Position numbers and translations under genes: made by a program. A stretch of 63,064 nucleotides of DNA, the filler included, from Rhabdomonas costata (taxonomy: Eukaryota): assembly GCA_019059605.1 (NCBI GenBank). It is 49 parts of 49 records of this genome, joined end to end, with 100 filler letters (N's around TTAATTAATTAA, not from the genome) between each part and the next. Parts side by side here need not be neighbours in the genome. Positions count along the whole stretch, not along the records: positions 7,719 to 8,908 come from JAHMHO010024301.1; positions 9,009 to 10,198 come from JAHMHO010024302.1; positions 10,299 to 11,489 come from JAHMHO010024303.1; positions 11,590 to 12,778 come from JAHMHO010024304.1; 45 more parts are not named here. One strand, 5' to 3'. The first letter of the stretch is position 1. Each line of letters opens with the position of its first letter. Positions 8,262 to 38,574 of this stretch are shown here, one piece after another. The notes below the pieces were generated by a model. The model worked only from the letters and a program-made list of their open reading frames with translations, was not told where the DNA came from and did not search any database.

Positions 8262-10513
8262 GTTCTTGCTGTTGTTATCGCAAGTTTTTACGGCGGTTTT
8301 ATAAAATTGTGTGGCACCGCTCTAGAAATTGTATTGCATCGCTATAAATGGTTGGCAAATGTTATATAGTGTGCTGTAAAAGGGGCCACTTAAAAAAACC
8401 TGAACTTTTGTGCCTCGGGAAAGTCACATTGATAGCACATTGGTGGGGCATTCTCGTTTGCCTTGACAGCTCTTTCCCTTTCCAACATGTTCTTCGGTGA
8501 ACCTCTCCCCCCCCCCTCAGGCTGGAGCCATTTGGTCACATTTGAGGTGAACGGTCGTTGCTGTTGAGGCTGTTGCCGTGATTGGCCATATTCTTGGTGA
8601 CTGCTCGCTCGTTCTGCGACTGGCCAGACGTACGGGGATGGAGGGTTTTGTCTTACTGTCAAAATGTAACTGCTGGTAGGTGTGCTTCGTGCTGCTGAAG
8701 GTCCCTTTAGCAAAATGAAATACATTTCAAATACATTTCAACAAAGACGTCACTTTGTATTGCATGAAAATGGGGTGTTGAATGTTTTAACGGGTCAAAT
8801 GTTTAAAACTGAACGCTCGAAACGTTTTAAGCTTCTAGGGGCACTCGCATAGAAAACATGACCTCTTCTCGGACACGTCCTTACACTTTGCCCCCCCCCC
8901 ACAAAAACNNNNNNNNNNNNNNNNNNNNNNNNNNNNNNNNNNNNNNNNNNNNTTAATTAATTAANNNNNNNNNNNNNNNNNNNNNNNNNNNNNNNNNNNN
9001 NNNNNNNNAGGTCAGTGGGTGTGTGCTTATCTTTGTTTTCGGTGTTCTCAGGAGTCGCCATCCCTTCTGCACCCCGTCGCCCGCAGCGTCCAAGTGTGCA
9101 TGCCCAGAGCCCCTCCCGGTATGCGCTCGGGGAAGTGGAAGAGTACACATCTTCTGGACAACTTTCTTCTGTGCGGTATCTGCATTGTGCTTCGTGTCAG
9201 AAGGGCTAACTTTTGTTTTTGGTCGAACATCTGTGGAAAGGGTCGCGGTGTGTTGGTGTGTGTGTACCGTATGAGTCGTGTGGCTTTGTATGTGTAGTTG
9301 GAGGGAAGATGGGGAGTTTCCAGCAGCACCTTTGTGTTTTCCACAGCCCCTCCGGAAGTCTTCCAGTCGCAGCTCAGCCCGTCGTCCCGTGGGCAGCTCT
9401 CGCCGCGCACCCCAAAGTCGGATCCCCTGGAGTGGTCGGAGCAATGCAGCAGCCCATCCTTCAGCAGGCATGCGGGTTCCAAAAAGTTGTCGTTATGGTG
9501 ACATTCTCATATATTCTCATATGCTGGTGATGGTTAGTCCATCAACTTTTTAGGGCTCGCTTTGTAAAGCAGCAGAAAGTGGTGTGACAACTTCCTTCAG
9601 CTTGTCTGATTGCAGGGGAGACTTGCATACGCTTTTTCGGATGTGCTGTGTGAGTTGTTGGAGTCAATTTGAGGCCTTCTTGCCTTTACTCGGACCTTTA
9701 CATGAACATTTGCAGGCCTGAAAACGGACTCTCCTCTTATCTTGTCTTCTTGTCAGCAGTGATCGTTTGGTGAGTGGAGGCCGGGAGGTTTCACCTAGGG
9801 TGGGTGGGTTTGATAAATCGTGGAAGTTCAGGAGGGACAACGGGTGGTGCTGCTTCCACACTGAAAGTCGTGCTTTGCCCAAGAGCAAAGCGCAAATGTT
9901 CATTTAGGCAGTATTTTCTTTTTTTAATTTCATCCGTTTGTATCACGAAATTACGAAAGCACGGAATATCGTCTTTGCACCAAATCGCAAACAGGCCTCC
10001 CAATCTAACCAAACAAAGCTCAAGCAAAACACAGAGACATCGGATGAGGACAAAAGATGTGGAAGCGTCGGCTCACTCCATTAAAATTCCCAAACCTCGG
10101 TTAATTCAAAGCGCTTTTTTTTTCACTTTGAGATGAAACAAGCAATGATGCTTCATTTTGTTCTTGTTCAGCCCTTCAGCCTCCTTTGCCCCCAAACCNN
10201 NNNNNNNNNNNNNNNNNNNNNNNNNNNNNNNNNNNNNNNNNNTTAATTAATTAANNNNNNNNNNNNNNNNNNNNNNNNNNNNNNNNNNNNNNNNNNNNCC
10301 ATGTTCGTGTGATCTGGCATGTGTGTATACGTGTGTTGTGTGCGCGAGCCCGCGAGCCCCAGTTCTTACGGTCTTGAGCTCAGGCCACAGCACGGGCCAG
10401 CCGGCAACTCATAGGCAGAGCGCCCGGGCGAGCGCCAAGTCCCCAGCCGCGGGCCCGCAGGCCGCCACATCCAGATGCCCTGGGGCGTCGGGGGAGGGCG
10501 GAAGGGCAGAAAT

Positions 10514-10813
10514 ATGTATACAGTTTTAAATGACATTGATAAGTGTATTCTTTTACGTGAATGCATTTTCTCAAGTTATTATATAATGGATTACTACAGT
10601 ATGAATGATCTAGTTGAGAACCTTAAAATAATGATCGCCTTTAAAGAACAAGAAGCTATGAAATTACAGTTAAATTCAGCTAATGATCTGAATACTAACA
10701 TTAAGCTCAATATACTTAAAACACAACCTACATATCATCAGAATTTAATAAATGATATGATGATACATAGATGTACAAACTGTTGTACTTGTAAGGGATT
10801 CTGTTACAAATAA
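10514..10813 (+). CDS. AT-rich intronless ORF of unknown function with a C-terminal Cys cluster (99 aa), in a virus-like island
   Basis: MYTVLNDIDK...HRCTNCCTCKGFCYK*; its AT-rich codon usage is unlike the host exons. Confidence 0.55.
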   Translation: MYTVLNDIDKCILLRECIFSSYYIMDYYSMNDLVENLKIMIAFKEQEAMKLQLNSANDLNTNIKLNILKTQPTYHQNLINDMMIHRCTNCCTCKGFCYK

Positions 10814-10859
10814 ATTCTCCAAACTTATTTTTATTTAATTTTTTTGTTCTACATAAATA

Positions 10860-11207
10860 ATGAAATACAATTATAAAAATTCAAAAATAGTTTTATAAAT
10901 ATATAAAAACAACTATATTTTAGATGCAACAAATGATACCATTAAAGAAAGAAAAATTGCTTTAAGAAATACACACCGTAATAATGCGCGTTTTTATGAA
11001 TTTTTCTGCAATTGCGATTTTATTTTATTAGATTCTTTTTCTTGCAATAATAAAAATGAGTTGAATCAGCGCATTAAATATTATGAACTTTTGCTAAAAA
11101 AAATAACTGAAATGAATATTAAGAAAGCAAACACTGAAGTAAATTTATACAAAAAGAAGTTGGATATATTAAACGCTCGGAAACAGCCACTCGTTGAAGT
11201 AAGTTAG
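10860..11207 (+). pseudogene. Degenerate GIY-YIG-like endonuclease ORF of large-DNA-virus/Polinton-like type, with an in-frame TAA at codon 13
   Basis: MKYNYKNSKIVL*IYKNNYILDATNDTIKERKIALRNTHR...CDFILLDSFSCNNKNELNQRIKYY parallels the viral pattern Y.NGKIYKI...YIGST...R...HR...I.LIE.FPC.NK.EL..RE.YY. It is absent from the ORF track because of the stop. Confidence 0.6.
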
Positions 11208-11639
11208 TCCTGTTTTGTATTTTGATTAACTAATTCTTTTAACAGTTGATGTTTCTTTATAAATCTATTCATTAGTTTTCCTATTCTGTACACACACAAG
11301 TCCAGTGTTCAAAGTCCGGCGCACACAACAGCCGCACAGATGCGAAGAGAAGAGAACGTGACTGCGGGAAAACAGTACAGTTTGAAGGGAGGAACAATAA
11401 CAAAAGCTTTCAAGCAGTCAATGAAGGAAGACACTGGTGAAACATGACAACAGCAGCAACTACCGCGGAGTCCACTCCCATAAACGCCCNNNNNNNNNNN
11501 NNNNNNNNNNNNNNNNNNNNNNNNNNNNNNNNNTTAATTAATTAANNNNNNNNNNNNNNNNNNNNNNNNNNNNNNNNNNNNNNNNNNNNGGTTTTGCTTT
11601 CTTTCCCTTTCTTTTGCCCACCACGCATCCCCTCCCCAG

Positions 11640-20458: not shown

Positions 20459-21111
20459 CTGTGAACGTGGCGAACGAGCTACAAAGGATGAGAGACAAGG
20501 GCAAGAGAAAAGAAATTNNNNNNNNNNNNNNNNNNNNNNNNNNNNNNNNNNNNNNNNNNNNTTAATTAATTAANNNNNNNNNNNNNNNNNNNNNNNNNNN
20601 NNNNNNNNNNNNNNNNNTCAGTCGATTGCTGGTTTTAGTCCATCCTCTCTTTTTTCTCTATCATTTTACATCAAAGCAGTCAGTGCAAGTGCTTCCGTCG
20701 TTTTTCTCTGTATCGTTTTATGGCTTTACGTGCACTGTAATTGCAACGAAATGCTTTTCCCAGATGTTGTCAGTGATTATCGGTCTCATCTGATGTGCAA
20801 AAGTGGTGAATCGGAGCGCCGGTCAATCTTGCCACCAAGGTCCAGGGCGGGCATTCCCATATGCCAAATGCTAATCAGCCGTGCCTGGTGTCGTCTTTTG
20901 TTCCTTTAGCAGAAGCCCGCCAAGGCGCTTTGCATGCTAGCACACTCCTAAGATGCATGGCTGGATAGATGGAAACATCGCCAGTAAATGCGCTAAAATG
21001 TATCGAATTAATTGTTCTGGATAATTCGGCTAAGAAAGTACACGATTCTCTCAACTTCTTTGTTTCACAGAAAATCGCTGTTTTTATGGGAAAACTGTGC
21101 AGTTATCAGAA

Positions 21112-21790
21112 ATGTCTTGTCCTTTGTTTCTACTGGTTCTCACCGTCGCATGGTCGCTAACAACCGCTACAATTACGCCCACCTCAACAACGACACCTAC
21201 CTACACCTCAAGCCCGAGTACCACACCCTCACCTTCAACCACACCATCGACTTCGCTGTCGCCATCATGCACGCCCACCCCCAGTCCCTCCGCCTCTCCC
21301 AGCTGTACGCCCAGCGTGTCTCCCAGTTCGACGCCAACATGCACACCAACCCCCTCTCCGAGCGCTACTCCCTCTCCCAGCACGTCTCCGAGCGCTTCGC
21401 CATCGGTCAGTCCCACTGGCACACCCTCGTCAACTCCATCCCCTTCTTGCACGTGTACCCCTTCTGCGACGCCTACCTCCACGCCCACTGGCACCCCATC
21501 TTTGACACCAAGTGTCTCACCAACGGCTACAATTTCACCCACGTCGACACCAACGGGCACCCCTACGCCAACCCCGACGGCAAGTCCTACCATAACGCCA
21601 ACATCTTCACTCACAAAATCCCCGACGTCTACTCCCACGAATACACCCACTCACACCCCCACGCCCACGCCCACCGCTACCCCGAGCCCAACGCCGACGT
21701 CCACGTTGACGCCCAGCTCTTCTCCTTCCACCACGCCCTCTTCCTCGCCCACGCCCAGCCCAACCCCTACGGTGACTTCCACCCCAACCA
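21112..21790 (+). CDS. Secreted or surface mucin-like Thr/Pro/Ser-rich protein, 5' part (runs off the contig)
   Basis: Hydrophobic N-terminus [19 protein letters not shown] followed by >200 aa of TPS/TPT repeats in an uninterrupted frame. Confidence 0.8.
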
Positions 21791-23326
21791 CCCAAACACA
21801 CCAACACNNNNNNNNNNNNNNNNNNNNNNNNNNNNNNNNNNNNNNNNNNNNTTAATTAATTAANNNNNNNNNNNNNNNNNNNNNNNNNNNNNNNNNNNNN
21901 NNNNNNNGGGTTTGGGGGGAGACGGGTCGGGTCCCGCAGGGTTATCGCCGAGTAGGAACCAGTCGTCAAAGTGAGAATAGAAGTGAGCAAGGAAAGACAT
22001 CTACTTCATGCTTTCTGACATTCCGTCAGCTTGGACCGTAGGTAATAGCCGATGTGTGTATCATCCTGAGCGTGATATCCACAGCTTTTCATCACATAGT
22101 CTCTTAGCAAAACGGTCCCAGGCCTCATATTTGAAGTAATAGCGTTGTCGAGAGGGAGGAATAGCTTTTGTGAAATACTGCGGGAAAGCGGCCTCCGTTT
22201 CCTGTGAGAACATCCTTTGCCCCTTTGCCGGAGGCTCATTGATCGCAAAAGTACCGTCAGCATTTCACTGGAATCGGGTCAACGGCCTCAATTTGAATGA
22301 TACCAACCAAACCTTGATAAGGGCATGACCTGCAGGCACAGCTGTTCAATTCCTCCACATCACTGGGAAGGCCACGAGGAAGAACGGGGGTATTCGACAG
22401 GATGTGGCCCTTATGCCTATTTTGTACGCTTTCAAAAACCCTTTTGAGCTGCAATGATCACCCTGGCCGGGCTATAGATTATGATTCTGCACCAACTCTC
22501 ACTCTTGGAAGGCCCGGGCCGGACTACAGTCATTGCACCTCGTTGCTTCAAAACGAACATGCAGTCGCAAACATCATTTTTAAACATAAAGTGAAGAAAA
22601 CTGTGCAGGGGCACAACAACTCTCAACTCGCAGGCCACTCGCATTCTTGTTTCCTTTTCGGAGCCGAGAAAAAAGCGCACGAGAAGACCTTCATGCCCAC
22701 ACTGCCCGATAAGCTCCCAACGCTCGACAAACGGGCTCCACGGAGTGGGGCTGCGCGCACGAACGACCGCGGATTGCCCTGAGCCCAATGTCTTCGTCGG
22801 CCTTGCCGAGTGACTTCTCGGTGGAGTTCTGAAGAAGCGCATACAGTCTCCCTCCAGCAACGATTGCTGCTGTTTTCTATCGCTGCGTTCCGCCCGCTTC
22901 ACACCTGTCCTGCTTCCTCCCTCTTCTCCATCTTGTCTTTGCCCAAGATCCCAAATTCTCCAATCATCCCGTTTTTGCCCCTCCCTTCTCTCAGACTTGT
23001 CGTTCCCGTGTCAGTCTTTGTAGTTTGTTTTCCCACTCAGATCTCTCTCGTGTTCCTCTTGTAAACAGTTTGTTTGTGCACCCCACAACCNNNNNNNNNN
23101 NNNNNNNNNNNNNNNNNNNNNNNNNNNNNNNNNNTTAATTAATTAANNNNNNNNNNNNNNNNNNNNNNNNNNNNNNNNNNNNNNNNNNNNTGTTGGTGTG
23201 GGGTCAGCAATACAACCAGGTGTTACAAAGGCGTCCGAAGCCTTTTGTTCGCATCAGTATCTGTTGAACGCTTGAAGCGAAGAGAGTGCTGCCATGAGAA
23301 GTTCTGTGTGTGGGTCGGGATCCTCA

Positions 23327-33103: not shown

Positions 33104-33935
33104 TTGAATAGTGAGGCAACACGCATATGCGGGATGAACACTGGTGGAACCCTGGAATCTTGTCTAACCTTCCTGATTCGACGTGGCACAAACTCCTTTA
33201 AGTCCAATTATTCAAGCCAACCATTTGCAGACTGGTCCAACTTTTTCCAAGAATTTGGAGAAGGGCCCCCATTTTTGGAACCAATAAACGTTGCTCTTGG
33301 GTACCGAAAGCCTCAAGTTACTAATGACCCTGTGCGTGGGTCAGAAAGTGGGAGAAACGTCCGCCTTCAACCATTCCGGGAACGAAAAAAAGGCTGAAGA
33401 CTATAACACCACNNNNNNNNNNNNNNNNNNNNNNNNNNNNNNNNNNNNNNNNNNNNTTAATTAATTAANNNNNNNNNNNNNNNNNNNNNNNNNNNNNNNN
33501 NNNNNNNNNNNNGTGTTGATAAGACCGCAGGTATCACTAGATATGGGGTGAGCTTCGTCTGCGGTGTGCACAAATGGCTTGTCTCTTGGATTAGGTAAAG
33601 GGAGGATTTTAGGCGGTAGGTAAAGGTAGTTTTTGTGCAGCAGTGGCCTGCAGCACAAACGCGACCGATGGGAGGGCGTGCTATTGCAGTGCTGGAGTGG
33701 GAACCCGAAAACCGCGAAGAGGAAGCTCAGTAGAAAAATTCTGAGTTAGTGAATGCGCTATACCGTAGATCACGCACACACGCACACAGTGGAGCGCATC
33801 CAGCTGCATAGGTGCAGTTGTTCCTTGGGACGTCGTTTTATCTTGCGCACACAACACCGGCAGATTGTTTCCTTCTTCATTCGAAAGCACCAACACCAAC
33901 ACCAACACCTGTTCGTCTTCTTTCGGACCACCAAA

Positions 33936-34118
33936 ATGGCAACTCAGATCTCGCAATACCTCAAAAAGGAGGTCTTGCAGGCCGGGGATGGGAAGACCCG
34001 TCCTACTCCCGGGTCGAAGGTCTCGGTACACTACACAGGCACCTTGCTCAGCGGGGAGAAGTTTGACAGCAGCGTGGACCGTGGCAAGCCCTTCCAGTTC
34101 AACATTGGCAAAGGGGAG
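33936..34118 (+). CDS. FKBP-type peptidyl-prolyl isomerase, first exon
   Basis: [61 protein letters not shown]. Confidence 0.95.
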
Positions 34119-34809
34119 GTCATTCACCTTCTCCTCCCCCTCTCCAACTTTACCATATTTTCGCTTTCGTTTTTTTACCTTTCACTCGGAAAGCAAGAAA
34201 AAAAAGGAAATGCAGGGCAAGACTCTTCTTGTTCACAAGCAGGGTGGGAAGATGTGTAAATGTCCGCAGATACGATTTTTATCATAGCACTGGCAGCACT
34301 CTCAACCATCCCCAGAACGCTCTGACGGAGCTGCGCAAGTGTCCACAGCCGTGGATTGTGCCTGTCGTCCTTGCCTGAAAGTATACGTCTACTGCTGTTC
34401 TCTCGCCGGACCGTCGCTGCCCCTAATTCCAGGGCTGGACCTTTAGTGCATGAATGCAGAAAGTGACCTTACCGTTTTTGAAAAAACGTATAAAAAGAAA
34501 AGGTCTATGGTTACATGTACGAATGGAGAACACAACCTTCCCAGTGGACCCGGGCATGAAATTGGGGTGACAGGGATGCAATGTTTGCACTTCTGGCCAG
34601 TAACACCAGGCCAGGCTTGCCCCTGTGCACACTGGCCTTCAGCTCAGAGCCACATTTGGAGCACTTGGAAGGCGGCTCTCGGAGAACTCCGTAACCCCCC
34701 AANNNNNNNNNNNNNNNNNNNNNNNNNNNNNNNNNNNNNNNNNNNNTTAATTAATTAANNNNNNNNNNNNNNNNNNNNNNNNNNNNNNNNNNNNNNNNNN
34801 NNGGTGTTG

Positions 34810-37761: not shown

Positions 37762-38574
37762 TCACGGTTTGGGCGCTGCAAAAACCAGAGAGAAAAGACC
37801 CGCAGGCAGTTCCCTCGCTCGCTCTGTCCCGCTGTCCCTGCACACCCACCAAGCAGAAAGGTTCTTAATCCAGGCAGTCCAATGCCCCGGGACCCCCTTA
37901 GTGTACTCGACGGCGGCCAGAATGGTGTAAGGCTTCGTGTTTACAACTAAGTCGTCCAGCTTGATCAGCTTTTCGCCCAACTGCTCAGTCTTGAGGGCCA
38001 AGACCAAGGTCGCGCCTTTCACAATGTAGTCATTCACTCGAACAGCAGGACCCGGCTTCTTAGGCGCGCACTTCGGACAGTCGACGTAGTCCGCGGAGAA
38101 CTCGTCCTGCAGTCCTGCTACGGCGTCGGAAAGCAGCTCCTTGTCGCCCAGGTCGACAAGCACGGTAAAATGGTCAGAGTAGGGGCCGAGGACGACGTGA
38201 GGGCATGCTATACAATTTGCGAAGGTGGAGATCTGGAAGTGGCAGACTTTCGGCTGAAATAGCGATGCCAGTGCCATCCAGACAAGTCGGGCATCCCGGG
38301 TCCGGTCGGTGGTGTCCTCTGACTGCGTAAGAAAAGGATATTAGTCGATGAATACTGTTTAAAGTTGTGGAAAGGGAGAAAGGCGGAACTCATAGGAAAG
38401 TGAAGTGCAAAGTACCAGCAGTGGTTTGATGTCGTTGTTGATGATGAGGGCCGTTGACCGTCAGCAATGCTCTTGGTCACCGTGGCCAAGTGGGCCTGAA
38501 TCTTCTGCTTGGACTCCGCGTACTTGGTGAAGCAGGGGAGCAGCGCCTTGCACCGAACGATGCAGTGGAAGATC
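37762..38574 (-). CDS. Divergent ubiquitin-specific protease (C19)-like domain, C-terminal part; intron or frameshift near 38325-38460
   Basis: Two CxxC pairs (CIAC, CPKC), a His box YTILAAVEY...GHWTAWIK...WWVCRDS, and an RDARLVW segment resembling the QDA box. Confidence 0.7.

Follow-up and report, generated by a model that had tools for sequence, protein, structure and literature searches.

An AT-rich island with remnants of four genes

The window, the whole stretch of DNA analysed here (63,064 nucleotides of the Rhabdomonas costata assembly GCA_019059605.1, filler included), is not continuous DNA: N spacers separate its 49 contigs, each about 1190 bp long. One contig (10299-11489) holds an abrupt AT-rich island that an earlier note, made from the sequence alone, had put at ~780 bp and, by eye, 20-25% GC. 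A composition scan agreed with this estimate, giving 24.6% GC across 10512-11288; the lowest 300-bp interval of the island has 20% GC, and every 300-bp interval of the other 48 contigs has at least 36%. The island amounts to 773 bp from the interior of a Polinton/adintovirus-like element that is AT-rich and present in many copies, and its contig is laid out as follows.

10299..10508, no strand: GC-rich left flank, which holds a splice-like segment (composition, own-genome search)
10509..10564, plus strand: end of gene A (about the 18 last codons; ~75-aa coiled-coil-like protein), cut at the left junction (comparison with L003)
10561..10813, plus strand: gene B (comparison with L003, Pfam search)
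10814..10859, plus strand: A/T spacer of 46 bp whose last bases, TAAATA, precede the start codon of ORF2; L002 and L003 have it too, conserved
10860..11207, plus strand: gene C, which is ORF2, predicted to encode a GIY-YIG-fold protein with a long C-terminal helix; stop at codon 13
11204..11281, minus strand: end of gene D (last 25 codons), convergent with gene C and cut by the host repeat
11286..11489, minus strand: host repeat of high copy number, putatively a retroposon and tailed by (TG)n; its fixed end lies here and forms the right junction

Both co-oriented reading frames described earlier are present, ORF1 at 10514-10813 (99 aa) and ORF2 at 10860-11207, as are the 46-bp A/T spacer with its TAAATA-ATG (A or T at 39 of the 46 bases) and the single in-frame TAA of ORF2. 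However, ORF1 is not the one intact gene it was taken for. At its position L003, another copy of the island, carries A and B as two genes whose stop and start overlap, and a one-base length difference near 10564 between the two copies fuses the end of gene A to gene B in the window, which gives rise to ORF1 and rules it out as a single gene. ORF1 had no match in Pfam, PHROGs, a word-index homolog search, the ESM Atlas or Foldseek PDB. The gene B protein is ~93 aa long in other copies and helical with a Cys-rich C-terminus; it had no Pfam match, and the window copy lacks 21 bp and 9 bp relative to L003. Gene D, whose 3′ end lies in the window, encodes a Cys-rich, zinc-finger-like protein.

Besides the window copy, an own-genome search returned three others, 87–93% identical to the island. 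The premature stop at codon 13 is private to the window copy and absent from L002, L003, L008 and L066, which carry other lesions of their own. Read-through of the TAA by a variant genetic code was ruled out, as the other copies are open at this position and neighbouring genes end in TAA. Stops in short-read assemblies of endogenous viral elements can be artefacts according to PMC10120064, and under that warning the private stop may itself be one.

A host repeat at the right junction

The right flank of the island belongs to a high-copy repeat, which accounted for 36 of the 42 matches of the own-genome search. Of these 36 repeat copies, 24 were examined; all begin no more than 18 bp from the position of the island junction, and they have mostly unrelated flanks and varied far ends. 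Three of the 24 break up genes that belong to the viral family of the island. At L132, the repeat insert is flanked by an 11-bp duplication of a sequence that is single in L006. Together, the fixed tailed end, the variable other end and the target duplication suggest a host retroposon, a class assigned from these features; no reverse transcriptase was seen for the repeat. Its copies (11286-11489; L004-L007, L129-L148) reach ~490 bp with 87–99% identity, several sit at AT-rich sites, and no coding partner was identified. The proposal that the island sits in a host intron is at most tentative, the right flank being a transposon-like repeat. As the repeat inserts in the nucleus of the host and amplification does not produce such insertions, they are good, if indirect, evidence of real integration, and the sequence data indicate that the island is viral and very probably endogenous.

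The left side is less distinctive. The flank at 10299-10508 had no second match in the own-genome search, and the two sides of the junction share a single base pair, with no target duplication. Within this flank, a 110-nt minus-strand segment (10479-10370) is bordered by a pyrimidine tract ending in CAG on one side and by GTAAGA on the other, with one frame open and two stopped. The exon-like segment reported at ~10370-10480 thus has acceptor- and donor-like ends, and as an exon it is only a candidate.

The features of the left junction would also fit an amplification or assembly chimera in which the right junction is real and the GC-rich left flank was joined artificially, in which case element DNA would extend beyond the left junction at the true locus. 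Pointing the same way, 4 of the 49 window contigs have fold-back ends, 19 of 129 AT-rich loci match themselves in inverted orientation (genuine hairpins in some cases) and the assembly has many side contigs of 200–260 bp. However, the island contig has no fold-back, the private lesions (stop, frameshift and two deletions) fit an old host-resident copy, and element fragments with GC-rich neighbours are common, as GC-rich DNA is found on 15 of the 51 element loci of at least 600 bp. A chimera is, in our judgement, distinctly unlikely.

Elsewhere in the window, the fold-back inverted repeats at contig ends (12879-12937, 7721-7777, 26865-26952 and 32223-32391) are likely amplification or library artefacts. 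Three host-like genes were recognized by eye at 33753-34259 (plus strand), 21034-21855 (plus) and 37762-38340 (minus), which we take to be an FKBP-type exon, a Ser/Thr/Pro mucin-like stretch and a peptidase-like ORF, respectively.

Predicted GIY-YIG origin of ORF2

Searched on its own, ORF2 had no match in Pfam, PHROG, the word-index homolog search or the ESM Atlas, and none in Foldseek PDB at E ≤ 0.001. The profile-type check proposed earlier failed for direct searches of both ORFs, but profiles built for the purpose did tie ORF2 to GIY-YIG proteins. The genome contains a paralog of ORF2 (L024; 26% identity, E 6e-8), and this paralog and its database relatives led to a four-sequence profile, which returned 821 matches at E ≤ 0.001, with PF01541 in 22 of the 40 top ones tested. 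An intact GIY-YIG profile was made from those 108 members of a 149-match set that have the complete Y/G/R/H/E set, the 149 having been gathered with a profile that included ORF2. ORF2 scored 32.8 bits on this intact profile, compared with a maximum of 11.9 among 5000 shuffles, and hhalign gave 98.7%. Searching PDB sequences by profile gave weak matches (I-TevI, E 0.012).

A model based on ten degenerate sequences only, with intact members excluded, reached a pLDDT of 85 and fits the three-strand, three-helix I-TevI-like domain of ~100 aa that is the fold of the GIY-YIG superfamily. Its top structural match was I-TevI (Z 6.4, rmsd 3.3, 73 residues), followed by UvrC, Slx1 and EndoII. Although a Z of 6.4 is middling, the top nine structural rows are all GIY-YIG-type proteins, four of which we presume to be of this type. 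In the ESM Atlas, the relative P0017 falls with GIY-YIG clusters, and the best fold matches include Klosneuvirus/Faunusvirus GIY-YIG proteins. With GIY-YIG nucleases (PF01541; I-TevI, 1ln0; UvrC, 1ycz; the NCLDV-type group with 'Y-x-N-G-K-I-Y ... C-x-x-K-x-E-L-x-x-R-E') gene C shares the fold, the spacing and the residues Y5, K9, I10, T24, R31, C62, L68 and R71. Unlike these nucleases, gene C has a long C-terminal helix and not a DNA-binding add-on. Overall, profiles and model indicate that ORF2 is GIY-YIG-derived, which confirms the resemblance first noticed by eye.

A conserved subfamily with a stripped active site

The Tyr, His, Arg and Glu of GIY-YIG domains have catalytic roles. The nine best matches of ORF2 among the 149 are 32–44% identical to it and cluster with it at support 90 in what is only a quick tree. 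In the active-site alignment, from which the poorly aligned L003 row was left out, the nine relatives have both tyrosines replaced (one relative retains one), as well as Gly, His and Glu, and keep Arg. The Tyr of GIY is changed to Val, Leu or Ile and that of YIG to Ile, Leu or Val, Gly to Asp, His to Leu, and Glu to Ile or Val. According to PMC1564403, the GIY and YIG motifs, Arg and Glu define the GIY-YIG superfamily. In ORF2 and its nine relatives, KIV and ILD stand in place of the two motifs, the central Arg (R31) is invariant in 10/10 members and the C-terminal Glu is Ile or Val in 10/10. The Asp at position 22 is likewise invariant in all ten, and loss of Glu and gain of Asp occur together in the subfamily.

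That the same losses are kept across such divergent sequences suggests selection for a non-standard job, and the gene C subfamily is a conserved group of probable pseudo-nucleases. The label 'decayed', given to the gene earlier, thus suits the private stop codon but not the odd active site, as nine distant proteins show the same losses. ORF2 has 22 Lys/Arg residues versus 12 Asp/Glu, and its C-terminal helix comprises 40 residues. From its sequence features, the gene C protein of the parent virus most likely binds DNA without cutting it. We also infer, tentatively and with slightly less than even confidence, that it may dimerise via the 40-residue helix and act as a decoy or regulator.

It is very unlikely that gene C and its relatives would still be nucleases, with the invariant Asp at the YIG glycine replacing Glu as metal ligand and Arg31 kept. 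The 10/10 invariance of D22 and R31 and the coincidence of Glu loss with Asp gain would suit such a rewired enzyme, but both tyrosines and the histidine, which also have catalytic roles, are gone too, and a second degenerate group (P0003-P0005) is without Arg, His and Glu yet has gained no Asp.

A pseudo-nuclease that binds DNA remains our preferred reading of gene C. In searches for the genomic context of the dead subfamily, 0 of 119 candidates in IMG/VR and 1 of 48 in metagenomes were retained, the latter a spurious bacterial locus; 11 loci from a further context search all retain Glu where it is visible. A catalytically stripped GIY-YIG subfamily was not found described in the open-access literature searched. 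A broader reading, which we regard as unlikely, would have an undescribed widespread viral GIY-YIG subfamily retained by small DNA viruses of protists as a non-cutting decoy (or as an Asp-for-Glu nuclease) that protects their own DNA against the active GIY-YIG nucleases of co-infecting giant viruses or rival elements, or interferes with those nucleases, with degeneracy having arisen at least twice here (gene C and the L024 type).

The gene at L024:218-484 (G000:C40951) is a second degenerate GIY-YIG gene, which keeps Tyr/Tyr/Gly and is without Arg, His and Glu. It has two database relatives at 68–69%, is AT-rich on a contig with one GC-rich end and has no link to the island's element.

A multicopy element family with Polinton hallmarks

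L003 extends the island upstream and L002 downstream, in both cases into AT-rich gene-dense DNA. Neighbouring pieces have at least 52, 32, 26, 42 and 37 matches in the genome, and the element family evidently consists of dozens of divergent copies in the assembly. Gene C is optional, as L019 and L030 pass directly from B to D. A chain of overlaps from the island (65–96% identity over 116–912 bp) leads one way to two fibre genes, which match tail-protein PHROGs, two small genes, a penton-like ORF, an ORF with PLA2 and Adeno_PX, and an ATPase; in the other direction it passes genes D and E and reaches a ~330-bp terminal repeat. L014, L267, L035 and L045 join blocks directly, but the polymerase orientations of L035 and L045 are opposite, so that at least one of the two is rearranged or chimeric. 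No single contig carries both the island and a hallmark gene, and the chain mixes subfamilies and includes weak or short links (116 bp, 132 bp, 65%, 68%); the resulting map is family-level, assembled from fragments, and does not represent one genome.

The defining features of Polintons are pPolB, an integrase, an ATPase and terminal repeats (PMC4642659; bioRxiv 2023.08.22.554363), and their terminal inverted repeats span 100–1500 bp (bioRxiv 2023.08.22.554363), a range that includes the ~330-bp repeat. The inner end of this repeat was found in 16 contigs, where it meets the pPolB stop (6), the gene E start (9) or no inner flank (1); in 15 of the 16 it faces outward, after pPolB and before gene E. 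An AGTAGT-type outer end is present in 8 of the 10 repeats examined. Repeats of the AGTAGT type are typical of Polinton ends. A 5–8 bp target site duplication surrounds a Polinton; here no contig contains the two ends of the element together. The polymerase scores above cut-off with PF03175, as a protein-primed PolB, and is linked at family level to the island through the terminal repeat and L035/L045; it has 40 matches in the genome and relatives in public assemblies at 61–83%. The ATPase scores 27.5 bits with Pox_A32 (cut-off, 22.8), as expected of a packaging ATPase, and is tied in by overlaps and by L014 and L267, although a Pox_A32 search of the genome had missed it before contig walking reached it. 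The single ORF with PLA2 and Adeno_PX combines a parvovirus-like PLA2 with a pX-like C-terminus (PF08398, E 0.00018; PF05829, E 0.0018; both under curated cut-offs), and such a PLA2X marks Alpha-adintovirus-type modules (PMC8502044).

The remaining structural genes and the integrase are less clear. An ORF of 266 aa adjoins a fibre gene and is presumably a penton by its motif pattern; it had no Pfam or PDB sequence match. The overlap walk from the island reached no major capsid gene, and a search with PF21738 (double jelly-roll capsid) gave no match anywhere, controls included. The earlier suggestion that other contigs be checked for viral genes yielded pPolB and an ATPase, whereas the walk met no capsid gene. 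At L163, pPolB is followed by a weak integrase-like start (E 1.8e-4); a clear rve gene accompanies a different polymerase.

Several further loci were noted during the walk. At L059:1-1671 (G000:C10922), another Polinton-type family has the pPolB C-terminus directly before an rve integrase, and it is found elsewhere only as 100%-identical fragments and so has a low copy number. L025:676-1478 contains two opposed terminal repeats ~200 bp apart, the first truncated, which could be nested elements, head-to-head elements or an artefact. An AT-rich ORF at L206:3-743 has a ricin-B-type lectin domain (E 4.5e-6, under cut-off) and lies beside the outer portion of a terminal repeat. Between the two fibre genes, L071 (530-715 and 324-581) holds genes that start with MGSCCC, presumably an acylation-like N-terminus, and a Cys-rich gene, none with a notable family match. 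IMG/VR contained no relative of fibre 2 and none of the polymerase. At L186:5080-11361, an element fibre resembles a tailed-phage tail fibre from IMG/VR (64% over 108 aa, weak head similarity), a likeness that possibly reflects phage-to-PLV fibre exchange.

The linked terminal repeats, pPolB, PLA2X and A32 ATPase indicate a Polinton-like source; the viral origin proposed earlier holds for Polinton-like viruses and not for NCLDVs. An organelle origin was ruled out, as copies are interspersed with viral hallmark genes. That the island came from a giant virus (Nucleocytoviricota) or from a phage of prey or contaminant bacteria is most improbable: the Klosneuvirus/Faunusvirus fold matches and the tailed-phage fibre, the nearest IMG/VR relative of the element's fibre, would favour it, but the four linked hallmarks and the host repeats inserted in element genes speak against it, PLVs commonly have GIY-YIG genes and fibres like those of phages (PMC12220804), and the phage record with the similar fibre has no match to the element polymerase.

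Proposed history and relation to known viruses

We are fairly confident that the best explanation of the whole is a decayed fragment (end of A, B, C and end of D) of a host-resident Polinton/adintovirus-like family in which gene C is a pseudo-nuclease. A full linear DNA element of this type would have integrated into the genome of its host, where a retroposon would later have inserted in gene D, making the right junction; the left part of the element would have been lost; and the remaining slice would have acquired its frameshift, its stop and its two short deletions, lesions that leave the window copy unable to make a complete gene C protein. The gene C protein of the parent virus would lack the cutting residues but keep a basic surface, the central Arg and the GIY-YIG fold, a combination from which we propose that it bound DNA and did not cleave it.

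Polintons/Mavericks and the adintovirus-like MELD viruses (Starrett et al. 2021, PMC8502044; Yutin et al. 2015, PMC4642659) have in common with the element pPolB, an A32-type ATPase, PLA2X, a presumed penton-like gene, phage-like fibres, terminal inverted repeats and, very probably, host-resident copies. In contrast to them, the element has a GC-rich, intron-bearing microbial eukaryote as host, no linked capsid or protease gene so far, a weak integrase link, a pair of fibre genes and clustered small orphan genes; the main text of PMC8502044 does not mention GIY-YIG. Endogenous PLVs and virophages of protists (Bellas et al. 2023, PMC10120064; cryptophyte PLVs, PMC12220804) likewise occur as AT-rich multicopy insertions with short-read fragmentation, stand-alone GIY-YIG genes and retrotransposons nested in viral genes. 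In the present element, by contrast, what is nested is a short repeat of non-LTR-like type flanked by a target duplication, and the catalytic set of the GIY-YIG gene is missing.

Protists are known to carry AT-rich Polinton-like insertions in many copies, in which GIY-YIG genes, fibres of phage type and nested retrotransposons occur (PMC10120064; PMC12220804). The element is one more member of the well-described Polinton-like viruses of these hosts, and the gene C subfamily is a variant within a known protein family. The datasets of PMC10120064 may already list capsid genes from the Rhabdomonas costata genome. Insertions of a host repeat with target duplication provide evidence, from sequence alone, that the element's virus family resides in the host genome. 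The conserved, catalytically stripped GIY-YIG subfamily escapes Pfam and offers a testable case of a viral pseudo-nuclease.
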